A stretch of 45,557 bases of DNA from a virus (IMGVR_UViG_2703719354_000009:1-45557), one strand, 5' to 3'. Shown: positions 8,182-26,469, numbered from the stretch's first letter. Numbers and translations are program-made. The notes: a model not told the origin generated them from the sequence alone.

Positions 8182-8257
8182 GCCGATATAGCTCAGTTGG
8201 TAGAGCAGCGCATTCGTAATGCGAAGGTCGTAGGTTCGACTCCTATTATCGGCACCA
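8182..8257 (+). tRNA. thrW: tRNA-Thr, anticodon CGU
   Basis: 76-nt sequence GCCGATATAGCTCAGTTGGTAGAGCAGCGCATTCGTAATGCG...GGCACCA with cloverleaf arms, anticodon loop CATTCGTAATG and 3' CCA; lies just downstream of proA. Confidence 0.9.
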
Positions 8258-8259
8258 TT
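8212..8259. repeat. attL core: 48-bp direct repeat covering the 3' part of tRNA-Thr
   Basis: Exact 48-bp identity (ATTCGTAATGCGAAGGTCGTAGGTTCGACTCCTATTATCGGCACCATT) with 45279-45326. Confidence 0.85.
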
Positions 8260-8271
8260 TAAATCAATAAG

Positions 8272-9435
8272 TTACACATCATTAGTACCTTCCTTATTTT
8301 TTGACTGGGACAAATTTGGGACCGATGGGTTCAGGATCGAGTCTATTTGCCGTGCGTGTTCGGTAAGGTGATTAGGTGCAAGGTGAGCATATCGACGAAC
8401 CATTTCGATAGACTCCCAGCCTCCCATTTCCTGTAACACTGACAACGGGACTCCGGCTTGAACCAGCCAACTTGCCCAGGTGTGTCTCAAGTCGTGAAAT
8501 CTGAAATCATCAATATCAGCCCGTCTCAGCGCCGCTTTCCAGGCTGTGTTTGCGTCATACCGCATCTTCCTTACTGTTGGCGCTTTCGTTCCGTCTGGTT
8601 TGGTACAGCTTTCCTTGTACACAAATACCCAACGGTGATGATTCCCGATTTGTTTTTTCAATACGCGACATGCAGTATCATTCAGCGCAACGCCAATTGC
8701 GCGGTTTGATTTACTCTCTTCCGGGTTTATCCATGCCACCCGGCGCTGCATATCTATTTGTTGCCATTCAAGGTTGATGATGTTCGAGCGCCTTAAACCT
8801 GTTGCCAGTGCAAATTCAACAACAGACTTTAATGGCTCCGGACATTCATCAATCAGCCTTTGTGCTTCATGGGGCTCCAGCCAGCGGATCCGTTTATTCT
8901 TTGGTTGAGGCACTTTAATAATTGGTGCCTTATCCAGCATTTTCCATTCACGCTCTGCGGCTCTTAGTAGGGCCTTTATAAATGAAAGATGCGTAGCCTT
9001 CGTTGCAACGGACGCTGGTTTTGGCGTGTATTCTGGAACAGGTTTCCCTTTTTTTCTGCATGCTTCTGCCCTGAGTCTCCAGTTTTCCTCATGACGCCGG
9101 TTCGTCATTTTCTGCATTGCTGAATAAATTTTTGATTCAGTAATGTCTCTTAGTTGCATTCCTGCGAAATGTTGAAGCCAGAATCCGATCCGGCTTTTGT
9201 CATCGTCCAGTGATTTTTTATGTGCTTTCTCTTCAAGCCACCTGACACACGCTTCCTCGAACGTTATATCAGGTATTTCACCAAGTTTGCTGACCCGCCA
9301 TGCTTCAGCCTTTAGCTTGTCATGGAGTTCTGTCGCCTGCCTTTTGTCCTTTGTTCCAAGAGACTGTTTAAATCTTTTACCGTTCGGCAATGTGAAACTG
9401 GCGTACCATATTTCACCTCTGCGGAAGAGTGACAT
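8272..9435 (-). CDS. int: Phage tyrosine integrase
   Basis: 387-aa ORF with N-terminus [34 protein letters not shown] and C-terminal catalytic region ...[39 protein letters not shown]; adjacent to attL. Confidence 0.9.
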
Positions 9436-9665
9436 TTTCTTTCCTCTGTTATGCCATCACCCGCGCTCACCTGGACAGTATGCAGCGGAGACTGAAGAGC
9501 CGCAATGCAGGCTTGTCGTGTTGTGAGGTAAGGAGATTTATTCTTAGTGGGATCTTTGCGTGTTGCCTGAAGACGCCCTGTGCGTATCCAGTTAATGGCA
9601 GTCGGTCTGGATATCTTGAGAAAATGACAGGCCTCATCGAGTGTGAGGCTGTATGGCTCCATTAT
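9312..9665 (-). CDS. xis: Excisionase, AlpA/Xis-like helix-turn-helix protein
   Basis: Start taken at internal Met [35 protein letters not shown] (HTH typical of AlpA-type excisionases). The ORF as read overlaps the int start by 124 bp in another frame, so the 3' boundary is uncertain. Confidence 0.55.
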
Positions 9666-9967
9666 TTCACCTCTTGCTGTGACATTGTTGAAAAATGGAT
9701 ACCAGCTCGTTGCTGCCAGACGATCCAACCGAGAGTCATATCCCATGCCATGTATTCGTTATCGCCGTTTTTTGCTCTCCGACGATCTACTAAGTCACCG
9801 AAACGCTTTTCCATGAATAATTCATAAGCTTCGCGTTCATCTGGTTCTACTTCCAGAGATAGGAGTGCGATTTCATAAGCACGGCGCTCAATATCGTCTC
9901 GCACGTCAAGGCTGTTGATACGCTCTTTAATTTCTTTAATCAGTTCTTTGTCGGTAAAAGTGGTCAT
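9662..9967 (-). CDS. Hypothetical phage early protein (YfdT-position homologue)
   Basis: 101-aa ORF, start codon overlaps the upstream stop; part of a co-directional early gene block. Confidence 0.5.
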   Translation of the reverse strand: MTTFTDKELIKEIKERINSLDVRDDIERRAYEIALLSLEVEPDEREAYELFMEKRFGDLVDRRRAKNGDNEYMAWDMTLGWIVWQQRAGIHFSTMSQQEVK

Positions 9968-10329
9968 TATGCTCCAGCCTCCGGTGCTTTTGGCATTACT
10001 GCCCAGTGAGTGATATTGACGTTTTCAAGGTCCCCGACCTGAAATGTCCACTGCCATTCTCCGGTTTCTTTTTGTCCCCAGGTGTACCAGAGAGAACGCC
10101 AGCCAATTAGCCAGCCTTCTCCGTTAGCATCGAATAACAAAACACTTTCATTTGCTGGTGGCAGTTCAGTTGACACTGGTATTACTTTGTTTTCCTGTGC
10201 TGCACATTTAGCTTCAAGCGCATCGAATTTACGCACCAGGTATTCAGCATCTGTTTCATTTACTTTCAGATCTCGCGGTACACATCTCCCACGAAGAAAC
10301 CCTTCCATTTCGAAAACATTCATGCGCAT
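9967..10329 (-). CDS. Hypothetical phage early protein (YfdS-position, DUF551-like)
   Basis: 120-aa Trp-rich ORF tightly packed in the operon. Confidence 0.5.
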   Translation of the reverse strand: MRMNVFEMEGFLRGRCVPRDLKVNETDAEYLVRKFDALEAKCAAQENKVIPVSTELPPANESVLLFDANGEGWLIGWRSLWYTWGQKETGEWQWTFQVGDLENVNITHWAVMPKAPEAGA

Positions 10330-10856
10330 TTGCGTAACTCCGATAACTCGTTAAAGCGTTCCATAAACATCCCGTAGGCATGGCCCGGTGCCAGTGGAAT
10401 CACGTTGAACATCTCTGTTGCCGGGATACCTTCCAGTACAGGCCAGAAAGAGCCATCATCAAGCCCGAGATCGCGGCGTTCGGTTGCCAGCATGATGAGA
10501 TCGGCATATTTCACGGGCGTACTCATAACTGGGGGTAACCCGTATTTCTCACGGATTACGGCGTCTATTTTTTCTTCCATTTGTTTATAGTCAGGAAGAA
10601 GGCGTTTCAGTGGTGCGGGAATGTCCTGGCAATACGCTTCTGTTGCATCATGCATTAACGCTTCAAAAGCAAATTCCTGCGGCACCAGCTGGCTGCAAAG
10701 AACCGCATGTTGGGCGACGCTGTAGAAGTGCGAAAGATGACCGGCAAAGCGACAGATATTTGAAAGGGAAACCGCGATATCGTTAATATCGATGTCGTCT
10801 TTATTTATCCTGTCATAATAAAAATGCTTCCCGGAAAAAGTTTTAATAAATGACAT
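10320..10856 (-). CDS. HD-domain phosphohydrolase (YfdR-like, putative 5'-deoxynucleotidase)
   Basis: His/Asp motifs (...AQHAVLCS... ALMHDATEAY...); start chosen at MSFIKTF, preceded by GGAG about 8 nt upstream. Confidence 0.6.
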   Translation of the reverse strand: MSFIKTFSGKHFYYDRINKDDIDINDIAVSLSNICRFAGHLSHFYSVAQHAVLCSQLVPQEFAFEALMHDATEAYCQDIPAPLKRLLPDYKQMEEKIDAVIREKYGLPPVMSTPVKYADLIMLATERRDLGLDDGSFWPVLEGIPATEMFNVIPLAPGHAYGMFMERFNELSELRKCA

Positions 10857-10983
10857 TTTGTTCTCCACGTATATGCGCTGCACCGCGCTGAATTCTGGTA
10901 AAAAGAATCCCTCACCATCCGGCGATTATTGAGTAAATTACGTTTCCATAAATGCCCCCGCAGGGGCATTTGCAGTAATGAAA

Positions 10984-11808
10984 TCAGGCGGTGAAAGTAC
11001 CAATAAAGGTTTCTACTTTGCTGTCCTTGAATTTCTCAACAAGCAGATCACGAAATTCGTTAGCCATTTCTTCCTGCACCGCCTCCAGCTGAATAATGCG
11101 CAGAACCAGTACAGGACGATCGCCAGTGATAATACTGAGGCGTAATTTAAACGGACGTTCTTTCAGACCTTCAAACGGAACGCATTTAAATTCAAATGCC
11201 ACTGGCATAATGTCTTTGGTCTTCGCTTCGACAGACTCCATCAGGGAGCGTTTGCCGCTGAAGTCATTATCTTCAAAATCAGCGGTCTGGTTTGCTTCAA
11301 TCGTGATTTTACGGACAGCCGCAGCCGCTTTTGTTGCCTGAATAGCGTCACCATTAGCATCAAAGCCCACAAGATAGTCTGCCCAGTCTTCAATCCATTC
11401 TGCTAGTGACTTCTGGGAGTTACGCTCGCCGTTAATAGACAACAGAGCAGAGAACGGTGCTGTCTTTTTCAGTTTGAGTGTGGCGGTGTTATCTGCGTGA
11501 CCTGGTTCATCAATAGTACCCAGGTTAAGCACACTGACGGCTCGCATATTATCGGCATCGATAAAGCAGCGGGTGCCTTCATCTGCAAGATCTTTAGAAT
11601 AACGGGTAAAGTCATCGATGCTGGCAGTGGAAAGCGCACCACGGAAACGGAAGCGATTTAAATTAAATTTTTCCAGATCATGAATGCGGAAATTCTCAGG
11701 CAATGCCACAGCATCGGCACCAATCTTACTGATAATTTCATTAACACCCTGAGCAGAAATAAGGGCATGGATTTGATTAATTGCGGTTGCGTCTAAGTTC
11801 TGAGACAT
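10984..11808 (-). CDS. DUF2303-family phage protein (YfdQ-like)
   Basis: 274-aa [25 protein letters not shown]...; length and sequence recalled as YfdQ-like from the K-12 CPS-53 prophage. Confidence 0.55.
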
Positions 11809-11873
11809 AATAAGTCCTCACTATATAAAGATATTCAGTGATGAGATAAATAATCGGTTAATTAAGAACGATA

Positions 11874-12236
11874 TTAATGACCTGCTGCGCGGAGTTTTCC
11901 GTCAGGTTCACCGGCAAGAGTCAGTAATTGTCCCTGGTCTTCCTGCAGAATAGTCAGGCGACCACCGCGATTGACATACATCGGCGTTTCGGTGGTGTCT
12001 TCTTCGGAAATTTTCCCGCGGTTAGTCGGGCGAACATATGAGAGTTTGTGTTTGATTTTCACACGGTTCTCATCAAATGGTTCGATTTCCAGGTTGAGTG
12101 AGACCTTACCTTTGGTTTTCGTGTTCATCACACCGGAAGCGACTTCACTGAGAACTGCGCCGATTTTGGTTTCAAATACGCCGCCGTCCAGCTCCCCAAT
12201 AAATGCCTGCACATCAGTACTGCGTTCGCTAGCCAT
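11874..12236 (-). CDS. Hypothetical phage protein (YfdP-position)
   Basis: Start chosen at internal Met MASERSTDVQAF (121 aa); the 5' extension of the track ORF runs into a GC-rich structured region and looks non-coding. Confidence 0.5.
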   Translation of the reverse strand: MASERSTDVQAFIGELDGGVFETKIGAVLSEVASGVMNTKTKGKVSLNLEIEPFDENRVKIKHKLSYVRPTNRGKISEEDTTETPMYVNRGGRLTILQEDQGQLLTLAGEPDGKLRAAGH

Positions 12237-12284
12237 TTTTCTGCTCCTAATCATATCGACCCTGCAAGGTCGGTTGGTTTCTCC

Positions 12285-12373
12285 ACAAAACAGAGAAGAA
12301 CACCTGCGGTGGCAGCCGCCCGGATGGATTGGGTTATGAGCCCGTCGTCCGGTGATGTTCTTCTCTGTTTTGT
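12285..12373. repeat. Perfect 18-bp inverted repeat (ACAAAACAGAGAAGAACA / TGTTCTTCTCTGTTTTGT) separated by a 53-nt GC-rich loop
   Basis: Arms at 12285-12302 and 12356-12373 are exact reverse complements. A second 10-bp inverted repeat GCGGTACCAG/CTGGTACCGC lies at 12381-12419. Confidence 0.8.
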
Positions 12374-12674
12374 AAAAAGAGCGGTACCAGCCGGAAGCAA
12401 GTGTACAAACTGGTACCGCGAGGACTACACACAGCATAAAGTTGTGGTGCCGGGTGCCTCCCGGTGCCTGGCGAAAGTTGCACACCAGGCGGGTGGGTAT
12501 CCACAGAAGGTCGACTGTCAGCCTCAACCTTAACCCGCGTGCGCTGAGCCGCATTCACCACAACGCTAAGGATTCTCTCTGGTTGAAAATACTTAGCTGT
12601 TATGTGCCTGTCTTTTCACCACTTCAGGCTCGGTGGTATCTTGGTGTTTTCATATAGCCAAGAAGGAAATAGTT

Positions 12675-12866
12675 ATGACCAAAGAAGAAAAAATTCTTTA
12701 TTTATTCCAACTATCGGTTAAGACTCACACTGCATATCAGACTGCTGCCATGACATCAGATAAAAATTACAGTACGTCAGAAAACCCGATAGACGACATA
12801 AGCAAGCTTTACGATAAGTTCGAAGCACTACTCGATAAAAAGTTTGCTGAGGCTGGGCTTGAGTGA
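12675..12866 (+). CDS. Small hypothetical protein (63 aa)
   Basis: ATG at 12675 preceded by AAGGA; AT-rich coding sequence MTKEEKILYLFQLSVKTH... Confidence 0.35.
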   Translation: MTKEEKILYLFQLSVKTHTAYQTAAMTSDKNYSTSENPIDDISKLYDKFEALLDKKFAEAGLE

Positions 12867-13004
12867 TTGTTGAATAATCGACAAAACCCAACTTAAATTT
12901 TCGTCAGTGGGCTCGATGCCATGTGCGGTGAGCTCACTTTTCAAAACTCCAAGCAATTCAGAGCTGATTTTCAATATATCTGCTTGATTTCTAACTATTC
13001 CCAC
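12828..13004 (-). CDS. Small hypothetical protein (58 aa), first gene downstream of the putative leftward promoter
   Basis: GTG start with strong upstream AAGGGAGG; converges on and overlaps the 3' end of the 12675-12866 ORF by 39 bp. Confidence 0.4.
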   Translation of the reverse strand: MGIVRNQADILKISSELLGVLKSELTAHGIEPTDENLSWVLSIIQQSLKPSLSKLFIE

Positions 13005-13195
13005 TTTTTCCTCCCTTGGTCTACGCGCGGTCATGTTTTACGCCCAAACGACTTCACAGTTATTGTTTAAAATCTGGACTTTCATTTCATACACCTGCTT
13101 TAACATGAGTGCCTAGTGGCACAACATGACTCAACGAATCATCCTGGACTTCATATGCCCCAGGCGGCTACTTCGTGGGCGTCCTGCCTGTTCGT

Positions 13196-13232
13196 TGTTT
13201 CGCTTGGGTACATTATGTATCTCAAAGGTACA
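13196..13232. promoter_or_regulatory. Two operator-like sites (OL-type), TGTTT-N7-GTACA and TGTAT-N7-GTACA
   Basis: Half-site pattern matches the perfect palindromes in the cI-cro intergenic region; located just downstream of cI where a leftward promoter is expected. Confidence 0.45.
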
Positions 13233-13242
13233 TTGTCAAGTA

Positions 13243-13266
13243 TAAAAAAACCTGCCGAAGCAGGTT
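13243..13266 (-). terminator. Rho-independent terminator downstream of the repressor gene
   Basis: On the minus strand: AACCTGC-TTCG-GCAGGTT hairpin followed by a T run. Confidence 0.6.
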
Positions 13267-13278
13267 CATAAACATTGA

Positions 13279-13953
13279 TTAGGCTTTGATTTTGTATCTT
13301 CTTGGTTTTCCTGAGAAAATCACTGTACCAATTATAGAGCAATTACCGTTGATCTTAATGTAAGGCTCAGGCCAGTTTGGGTTTAACGCTTTGAGATAAC
13401 GCTGTGTCCCATCTTCTATCAACCTTTTGAAGGTGGTTTCACCTGTATCGTGCATCAATGCAATAACGTCGTCACCGTGGCAGGCAGGTACTTCAGGATC
13501 GACAAAAATCATGTCTCCCGGGCGGTACTCATCAATCATTGAATCACCTATCACCCGCAAGATATAAGTCATTTCCCCACAGGGTACAGGGCAGGGATAC
13601 GTTTCTGCTGTGCTCAAATCAACCTCAGAATATCCAACTTCTTTCCATGCTCCGGCCTGTACCCATGATATGACAGGGACTAATGTGATTTGTTTATTAG
13701 TGATTGAAACATCAGGTTTTTTTGTGATGTTCGTTGTCTGGTGTTCTTGATCGAGCCATCCGACAGGCAGGTCGAAACATTTTTCGATGTGTCGTGCCAT
13801 GCTGTCACCGATATTTTTAGTAGCACCATCTCCCATAAACCTGCTGGTCTGGGTTGGCTCGCGATCAATCATAGTGGCAAAGGAAGAATTCCCGCCAACA
13901 CCATCTCTCAGTTTTCTGGCGTTAGACCGCCGGATGTCATGGATTGTTTTCAT
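13279..13953 (-). CDS. cI: CI-type phage repressor (HTH plus S24 LexA-like peptidase domain)
   Basis: 224 aa; C-terminal S24 signature ...VIGDSMIDEYRPGDMIFVD...FKRL...; divergent from a cro-like gene; no Shine-Dalgarno upstream of the ATG. Confidence 0.85.
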   Translation of the reverse strand: MKTIHDIRRSNARKLRDGVGGNSSFATMIDREPTQTSRFMGDGATKNIGDSMARHIEKCFDLPVGWLDQEHQTTNITKKPDVSITNKQITLVPVISWVQAGAWKEVGYSEVDLSTAETYPCPVPCGEMTYILRVIGDSMIDEYRPGDMIFVDPEVPACHGDDVIALMHDTGETTFKRLIEDGTQRYLKALNPNWPEPYIKINGNCSIIGTVIFSGKPRRYKIKA

Positions 13954-13968
13954 AACGAAATTAAAACC

Positions 13969-13989
13969 CTTGTACCGTTAAGGTACAAG
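13969..13989. promoter_or_regulatory. Operator palindrome CTTGTACC-GTTAA-GGTACAAG (OR-type)
   Basis: Perfect 8-bp inverted arms in the cI-cro intergenic region; core TGTAC-N7-GTACA. Confidence 0.55.
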
Positions 13990-14017
13990 TATCTTGAAGG
14001 TTCATTTCAATCATGTA

Positions 14018-14040
14018 ATATGTACACCGGAGGTACATAT
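14018..14040. promoter_or_regulatory. Operator palindrome ATATGTAC-ACCGGAG-GTACATAT (OR-type)
   Basis: Perfect 8-bp inverted arms; same TGTAC-N7-GTACA core; overlaps the cro ribosome-binding region. Confidence 0.55.
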
Positions 14041-14043
14041 TGT

Positions 14044-14244
14044 ATGAAAGCGTATTGGGACTCTTTAACCAAAGAACAGCAGGGCGAGTTGGCCGGAAAA
14101 GTTGGCTCAACACCTGGCTACTTACGGCTGGTTTTCAATGGCTATAAAAAAGCCAGTTTTGTGCTGGCTAAAAAACTTGAGCAATGCACGTCAGGTGCAA
14201 TTACGAAATCTGACTTAAGACCGGATATCTATCCGAAAGATTAG
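14044..14244 (+). CDS. cro: Cro/YdaS-like HTH regulator
   Basis: Start at MKAYWDSLTKEQQGELAGKVGSTPGYLRLVFNG... (66 aa) preceded by GGAGG; divergent from cI. Confidence 0.7.
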   Translation: MKAYWDSLTKEQQGELAGKVGSTPGYLRLVFNGYKKASFVLAKKLEQCTSGAITKSDLRPDIYPKD

Positions 14245-14275
14245 CAGAACACTTTCAATTTTTAACCACAGAACG

Positions 14276-14845
14276 ATGAGGCTAATTGTGGGTAAGCATC
14301 ACTGGAAAATAGAAAAACAGCCTGAGTGGTACGTGAAAGCTGTCAGAAAAACTATCGCTGCGTTGCCGGGTGGTTACGCTGAAGCGGCTGACTGGCTCGA
14401 TGTAACAGAAAACGCTTTATTCAACCGCCTTCGTGCAGATGGCGATCAGATTTTCCCGCTGGGATGGGCAATGGTTTTACAGCGTGCTGGTGGCACTCAC
14501 TTCATTGCTGATGCTGTGGCGCAGTCTGCAAATGGCGTCTTTGTGTCTCTTCCTGACGTCGAGGATGTGGACAACGCCGATATTAACCAGCGTCTGCTGG
14601 AAGTCATTGAACAGATCGGCAGTTATTCAAAACAGATTCGTTCAGCAATCGAAGACGGTGTAGTGGAACCGCATGAGAAGACAGCAATTAACGACGAGCT
14701 GTATCTCTCAATTTCGAAGCTGCAGGAGCATGCAGCACTTGTCTACAAAATTTTTTGCATTTCAGAAAGTAATGACGCCCGCGAGTGTGCAGCTCCGGGC
14801 GTCGTGGCGTCGATTGCTTCTGGTTGTGGAGAAACTAACGCATGA
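14276..14845 (+). CDS. Putative cII-position regulator (YdaT-like)
   Basis: 189-aa ORF immediately after cro; family assignment from weak sequence recollection only. Confidence 0.4.
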
Positions 14846-26286: not shown

Positions 26287-26469
26287 ATGATCATGCTGAT
26301 TCTCGCGCCTCTGGTGGGCGTGCTGGGGGCGCTTTTGCTGGCGTATGGTGCCTGGCTGATTTATCCCCCGGCGGGGTTTGTTGTTGCCGGGGCGTTGTGC
26401 CTGTTCTGGTCGTGGCTGGTGGCGCGATATCTCGACCGTACACAGATGTCTGTTGGTGGAGGTAAATAG
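26287..26469 (+). CDS. Small hydrophobic protein (60 aa)
   Basis: Two predicted membrane helices; lies between the terminase and portal genes. Confidence 0.4.

Follow-up and report, generated by a model that had tools for sequence, protein, structure and literature searches.

A probable lambda-type lysis/lysogeny switch of the e14/SfV immunity group in an SfV-like prophage at a tRNA-Thr gene

Introduction

What kind of switch governs lysis and lysogeny in a prophage whose divergent repressor and cro genes are separated by two perfect palindromes, and is the immunity that it specifies a new one? The question was raised by a reading, made from the sequence alone, of the immunity region in a 45,557-bp stretch of viral DNA (IMGVR_UViG_2703719354_000009, referred to throughout as the window). 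This original prediction proposed that an operator family with the core TGTAC-N7-GTACA serves the region and that it defines a candidate immunity specificity for the prophage. The locus is very probably a lambda-type lysis/lysogeny switch that falls in the e14/SfV immunity group, and the prophage that carries it is SfV-like and sits at a tRNA-Thr gene. The lambda type is indicated by the divergent cI and cro genes, an S24-type repressor, multiple OR sites, an OL region lying over pL and a leaderless cI message, while the near-identical cI and cro genes and the identical operator region place it in the e14/SfV group. The proposed specificity is supported by conservation in homologues, but it is not new, being the long-known e14/SfV immunity type. 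That identity was missed at first, as was a degenerate third site in the right-hand operator (13988-14004).

The prophage and its immunity group

An integrase open reading frame (8272-9435, minus strand) comes immediately after a tRNA-Thr(CGT) gene at 8182-8257. The left arm (8212-13300), which runs from the tRNA-Thr gene through the integrase and xis genes to cI, is 98.9% identical to that of SfV and, together with the tRNA-Thr/integrase arrangement, this identifies the element as an SfV-like prophage at thrW. The immunity region is 93-99% identical to those of SfV, SfIV, cdtI, Stx2c phages, Ayreon and PhiR29; for SfV and SfIV the DNA identity is 95-98%, and the cI protein is 100% identical to that of SfIV. 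Matches to the segment from 13190 to 14250 were found in 1324 of the 5426 complete E. coli genomes, in which the genes are annotated as ymfK and ymfT. This immunity type, to which e14 of K-12 belongs, is very common among E. coli and Shigella prophages and occurs in about one in four complete E. coli genomes.

Compared with a K-12-type genome, 7 of the 1061 bases in this segment differ, the cI region is 99.3% identical to K-12 ymfK, and the 90 bp between cI and cro are 100% identical to the ymfK-ymfT spacer. From this match it follows that e14, with its genes ymfK, ymfT (croE) and ymfL, has the same operators, promoters and leaderless repressor start. The two elements otherwise differ, e14 being a 15-kb defective element whereas the prophage described here is full-length, and the sequence to the left of about 13160 is not the same.

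The e14/SfV immunity module is already known, its operator region having been flagged in GenBank in 2002 and its leaderless message published in 2014. In the SfV entry (U82619), a "putative operator region" at 26377-26445 corresponds to window positions 13970-14038, reaching from one palindrome to the other, although neither the individual sites nor OL and pRM are resolved in that feature. In SfV itself the left half of OR1 reads TGTAT, compared with TGTAC here, and the central bases also differ. A literature search found no published EMSA, footprint or ChIP for YmfK or YmfT and no mapped operator of SfV, e14, YmfK or CroE, so that the occupancy of the sites by cI and Cro is deduced from sequence. 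A paper on YdaT as a CII equivalent and a Reg-Seq preprint, which mentions a YmfT iModulon, contain nothing on these operators. What is added here are the coordinates of the individual sites, the third OR site, a pL −10 element formed where two operators meet, and the finding that the motif is conserved in several bacterial orders. Mehta, Casjens and Krishnaswamy reportedly predicted repressor and Cro binding sites for e14, by analogy with SfV, in BMC Microbiol in 2004.

Genes of the region

The cI and cro genes diverge from the 90-bp spacer, cI on the minus and cro on the plus strand (Table 1). The C-terminal domain of cI aligns to that of lambda cI, and the protein carries a LexA-type cleavage site, VQA-GAW (Ala100-Gly101), together with the catalytic pair in GDSM (Ser138) and TFKRL (Lys176), with the TFKRL lysine included in the lambda alignment. 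In its N-terminal HTH domain, the first 75 residues gave no match to Pfam HTH models, and one solved phage repressor chain is matched weakly (5d50_A, E = 5e-4). The Cro protein matches the Pfam families YdaS_toxin and HTH_3, both under their curated cut-offs, and the next gene is the orthologue of the one named ymfL in K-12-type genomes.

Table 1. Features of the immunity region, in window coordinates
Feature	Position	Strand	Details
OL promoter-distal operator	13196-13212		TGTTTCGCTTGGGTACA; cI-sense strand TGTACCCAAGCGAAACA; 2 mismatches to core
pL-type promoter	13212-13239	-	TTGACA (13239-13234), 16-nt spacer, CATAAT (13217-13212)
OL promoter-proximal operator	13216-13232		TGTATCTCAAAGGTACA; cI-sense strand TGTACCTTTGAGATACA; 1 mismatch to core
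Intrinsic terminator 3' of cI	13248-13267	-	8-pair stem, then T-run; annotated in SfV and Ayreon
cI repressor, YmfK orthologue, 224 aa	13279-13953	-	Pfam Peptidase_S24, 1.5e-26, residues 93-212
pRM-type promoter, leaderless cI mRNA	13960-13988	-	−10 TTTAAT (13965-13960), −35 TTGTAC (13988-13983)
OR3-like operator	13971-13987		TGTACCGTTAAGGTACA; exact core match
OR2-like degenerate operator	13988-14004		cI-sense strand TGAACCTTCAAGATACT
pR-type promoter, predicted	13994-14021	+	TTGAAG (13994-13999), 16-nt spacer, TAATAT (14016-14021)
OR1-like operator	14021-14037		TGTACACCGGAGGTACA; exact core match
cro, YmfT/CroE orthologue, 66 aa	14044-14244	+	YdaS-type HTH; GGAGG at 14029-14033
CII-like regulator, YmfL orthologue	14276-14845	+	Pfam Phage_CP76, 1.3e-13; first gene after cro

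The right-hand operators

Both palindromes were found where the original prediction had placed them. The one at 13969-13989, CTTGTACC-GTTAA-GGTACAAG, has perfect 8-nt arms, and the other, at 14018-14040, is a perfect inverted repeat, ATATGTAC-ACCGGAG-GTACATAT, around which an 87% symmetry can be followed over 15-nt arms (14011-14025 and 14033-14047). They contain the only two exact copies of TGTAC-N7-GTACA in the window, against 0.01 expected, and not one of 100 shuffles of the window reached at least two. When a single mismatch is allowed, the proximal left-hand site is the only further match window-wide, whereas the two-mismatch class is close to chance (19 seen, 13.4 expected), so that the distal left-hand site, which falls in this class, needs other support, from its position and from conservation in relatives.

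The window was scanned with a position matrix trained solely on the operator sites of Hafnia, Edwardsiella, Vibrio and Pseudomonas phages, with the lineage of the window left out. Among the 45,539 positions scanned, ranks 1 to 4 went to the four sites of the original prediction, and rank 5 to 13988-14004, with a score of 12.5 compared with 9.1 for the next best position in the window. Elsewhere in the prophage the scan gave scores of at most 9.1, which is the level of the background, and the 90-bp spacer was found to contain no other repeated motif. A weak operator-like sequence inside the cI coding region, ATTTCCCCACAGGGTACAG at 13572-13588, reached 9.05 (rank 7) and is indistinguishable from background.

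The fifth rank of 13988-14004, together with its matches in relatives, makes OR a three-part operator as in lambda, in which two sites are exact and one is degenerate. The sites overlap the −10 and −35 elements inferred for pR as well as the −35 of pRM. The best match to the consensus among them is OR3, which covers the −35 and spacer of pRM, and the weakest is OR2, which adjoins OR3 and contains the −35 of pR. On the other side, the last T of the pR −10 is the first T of OR1, and OR1 goes on to cover the expected pR start site and the Shine-Dalgarno sequence of cro. The predicted pR agrees with the consensus at 8 of 12 positions, which is under the threshold of the promoter scan, and is kept in relatives. 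An in-frame ATG within OR1 precedes the cro start by eight codons (14020-14043) and would add MYTGGTYC to the protein. This upstream codon is without a Shine-Dalgarno sequence, is missing in several relatives and is probably unused.

The leaderless repressor message

It had been proposed that cI, lacking a Shine-Dalgarno sequence, is translated from a leaderless transcript and that cro is preceded by GGAGG. Both proposals hold, with the cro ATG corrected to 14044. The cI ATG at 13953 is preceded by an in-frame TAA 30 nt upstream, with no alternative start codon, and the best anti-Shine-Dalgarno pairing within the 20 nt upstream of cI is −4.3 kcal/mol, compared with −10.8 kcal/mol for cro. In the differential RNA-seq map of K-12 start sites by Romero et al. 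(2014; PMC4681348), ymfK is among only five leaderless mRNAs, and Table S3 of that study lists a class I start site at 1202156, which is the gene start, with a leader length of 0. Since the window has the identical spacer, this start carries over to cI, whose message begins at 13953, the A of the ATG. Counted from this mapped start, OR3 extends from −34 to −18 of pRM, and OR2 is centred at −43.

The pRM hexamers were inferred from this start site, TTTAAT being separated from the ATG by 6 nt and TTGTAC lying 17 nt farther upstream; the −10 is without the usual A at its second position. Another candidate cI promoter, with a GATACT −10 between the sites, was rejected, as a usable −35 is missing and the mapped start of transcription makes it needless. 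Start sites for pR and pL are not listed in the K-12 dataset, as is expected of repressed promoters; the predicted positions are around 14027-14029 for pR and 13205 for pL. In the same dataset the repressor mRNAs of two other K-12 elements, racR of Rac and dicA of Qin, are leaderless as well and have YdaS-type Cro partners, but these repressors belong to other families, have other operators and have no S24 domain.

A usable Shine-Dalgarno sequence before cI is absent in all 29 relatives compared, where the pairing ranges from +1.5 to −5.1 kcal/mol. In most of them an nnnAAT hexamer precedes the ATG by 6-7 nt, and the gap reads 8-9 nt in three Salinicola/Halomonas regions (L031, L032 and L034).

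The left-hand operators and pL

The two imperfect copies downstream of cI, one with two mismatches and one with a single mismatch, are located as originally described, and the pL-type promoter that had been expected there is present and, in the promoter scan, agrees with the consensus in 11 of its 12 bases. It reads leftward, toward xis and int, and is overlapped by both OL sites. The proximal site fills the spacer and runs 2 nt into the −10, and the distal one extends from about −7 to +10, so that the −10 is built at the junction of the operators and its last T opens the distal one. The same order, terminator-TTGACA-A-operator-TAA-operator, recurs in Enterobacterales relatives, and a promoter is annotated in phage Ayreon (MF807953) at the equivalent of 13213-13240 on the minus strand.

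The proximal site has the top matrix score (23.3), a value partly inflated by homology of the region to some of the training sequences, while the distal site scores 14.7 (rank 4). Among the relatives, the proximal site is found at the same place inside the pL spacer in about 24 of 29 and is exact in most, whereas the distal form, TGTACC-N5-GAAACA, is kept in about half and missing in several.

Just to the left of OL there are mosaic joints, with similarity to e14 of K-12 beginning at about 13160 and to phage Ayreon at about 13190, which suggests that the exchangeable immunity module begins right at OL/pL. Farther along in the pL operon, a match to the sRNA family STnc100 in Rfam (12372-12594, minus strand) reaches 48.5 bits against a gathering score of 47, and it is overlapped by an implausible 226-aa open reading frame (11874-12554).

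Conservation of the sites among relatives

A tblastn search with the DNA-binding domain of cI found homologues in Hafnia phage yong2 (73% identity), Edwardsiella phage EPP-1 (62%), Vibrio phage p42 (55%) and Pseudomonas phages including LESphi3 (55-59%), as well as in H-19B (41%). TGTAC-N7-GTACA is present between cI and cro in all of these except H-19B, which has TATC-type repeats as operators and a recognition helix that reads SPSQLTQ, compared with EPTQTSR here, and which served as the negative control. Wherever the motif is present, so is a helix of the form EPTQ(T/V/I)SR. A scan of one genome per species yielded 27 true homologues of the DNA-binding domain from about 20 genera of Enterobacterales, Halomonadaceae and Pseudomonas, and all 27 have two sites, of which one starts 34-37 nt ahead of the cI ATG and the other lies 50-51 bp beyond the first. 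Homologous regions without the motif, named at the outset as the finding that would speak against the operator family, were not found among these 27 or among the Hafnia, Edwardsiella, Vibrio and Pseudomonas phages. The possibility that the cI homologues of Pseudomonas and Vibrio had undergone a C-terminal domain swap was rejected, as all retain S24.

Statistics taken over 29 distinct homologous regions from about 20 genera refine the operator to a two-fold symmetric 17-bp consensus, TGTACC-N5-GGTACA. OR3 has no mismatch in 24 regions and one in 5, and OR1 has none or one in 28. The half-sites carry 1.8-2.0 bits per position, compared with 0.2-0.7 bits at the centre of OR3, where 23 distinct pentamers occur; the centre of OR1 always reads CCTCC on the cI-sense strand. 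The offset from OR1 to OR3 is 50-51 bp in all 29 regions, and an equivalent of OR2 lies next to OR3 in every one, the offset being 17 bp for 22 of them and 16 bp for the other 7. The latter (L006, L007 and L031-L035, from Pseudomonas, Salinicola and Halomonas) have OR2 about 50 nt upstream of cI with a perfect TGTACC left half (TGTACCGTCAAGGTTCT), and in them OR2 and OR3 share one base where elsewhere they adjoin.

The cro gene is inherited along with cI in every lineage, its homologues being 31-83% identical, and conservation alone therefore cannot tell cI from Cro as the protein that reads the sites. It could be argued on this ground that the operators are real but bound mainly by Cro (YmfT), or by the CII-like YmfL, with cI recognising something else. 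This is very unlikely, as the sites track the recognition helix of cI, the spacer offers no other repeated motif, and stable lysogeny needs a maintenance repressor on the left-hand pL sites. To our knowledge, moreover, every characterised lambdoid switch has operators common to cI and Cro.

It is also highly unlikely that the two exact palindromes are the only functional sites and that the left-hand copies and OR2 are chance matches or plain promoter sequence. The chance frequency of two-mismatch matches and the loss of the distal OL site in some relatives do fit such a reading, as does OR2, whose invariant centre is the TTG of the pR −35 and which is thus under two constraints, its conservation being partly explained by the promoter. 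The TGWACC end of OR2, however, is invariant although it lies outside that hexamer, the proximal OL site keeps its exact form and its position within pL, and the three sites in question take ranks 1, 4 and 5 in the matrix scan, with a clear gap before rank 6.

That the palindromes form RNA or DNA hairpins, such as a terminator or attenuator upstream of cI, is barely credible: both are perfect inverted repeats, and the terminator scan reports an 8-pair stem at 13989-13969 (minus strand) followed by GGTTTTAATT, but the T-run is poor, complementarity is lost in the left-hand copies and in OR2 although each retains one good half-site, the measured cI mRNA starts downstream of this stem and so does not contain it, and the arms never covary in 29 lineages, being invariant at about 2 bits per position with no compensatory change, which points to base-specific recognition by a protein and not to pairing. 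An Rfam search of the immunity region matched no family.

A model of the switch and its relation to lambda

On the preferred reading, that of a lambda-type switch, dimers of the YmfK-type cI would bind the 17-bp operators and, in a lysogen, would shut off pR and pL by occupying OR1, OR2 and both OL sites. OR1 and OR2 are 33 bp apart (3.1 helical turns) and the OL sites 20 bp apart (1.9 turns), each pair on the same face of the helix, whereas OR2 and OR3, at 17 bp (1.6 turns), are on opposite faces. The repressor would be transcribed in the lysogen as a leaderless mRNA, with OR2 apparently placed to activate pRM, as in lambda, and filling of OR3 would block pRM and so limit the synthesis of cI. 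After DNA damage, RecA-stimulated self-cleavage at Ala100-Gly101 would be expected to derepress pR and pL. Cro probably uses the same sites as cI.

The likeness to lambda goes beyond the divergent genes and the self-cleaving S24 repressor, and extends to 17-bp symmetric operators, three of them at OR, to OL sites over pL and to an OR2 placed about 42-43 bp ahead of the start of a leaderless pRM transcript, with the −10 followed by 6 nt and the ATG. The promoter pRM of lambda has this same geometry. There are also differences. The DNA-binding domain is unrelated, and so is the operator sequence, which is of the TGTACC-N5-GGTACA family in place of the TATCACCGC type; there are two OL sites and not three, and the centre-to-centre spacings at OR are 33 and 17 bp compared with 24 and 23 bp. 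The rexAB genes of lambda are absent here, which leaves OL and OR separated by only about 0.75 kb. It is the site over pRM that comes closest to the consensus, whereas the lambda site so placed is the one with the weakest affinity for repressor, and the order in which the sites are filled may therefore differ. In addition, an N gene has not been recognised among phages of the SfV type (PMC3851460).

A broader proposition, which is offered tentatively and is on balance doubtful, has two parts. The first is that a single operator specificity (TGTACC read by an EPTQxSR helix) was retained even as the DNA-binding domain diverged to 55-60% identity among phages of Enterobacterales, Vibrio, Halomonadaceae and Pseudomonas. 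The second is that the switch geometry is unlike that of lambda, with the strongest-looking site over the repressor's own promoter and OR2 adjoining OR3 on the opposite helix face. If both were true, cross-immunity could exist between such phages of different genera, and tight negative autoregulation would take the place in this switch of the ordered site filling seen in lambda.

The site coordinates are of use in designing binding experiments, in predicting immunity to superinfection among phages of the SfV, Stx2c and cdtI types, and in annotation. In two relatives the deposited cI start departs from the ATG without a Shine-Dalgarno sequence that is common to the whole family. Judged against that conserved codon, the start in Hafnia phage yong2 (L003, 1501-2175) is 117 nt too late, so that the HTH is lost, and the one in Edwardsiella phage EPP-1 (L004, 1435-2169) is 66 nt too early, both probably gene-caller artefacts of leaderless starts.
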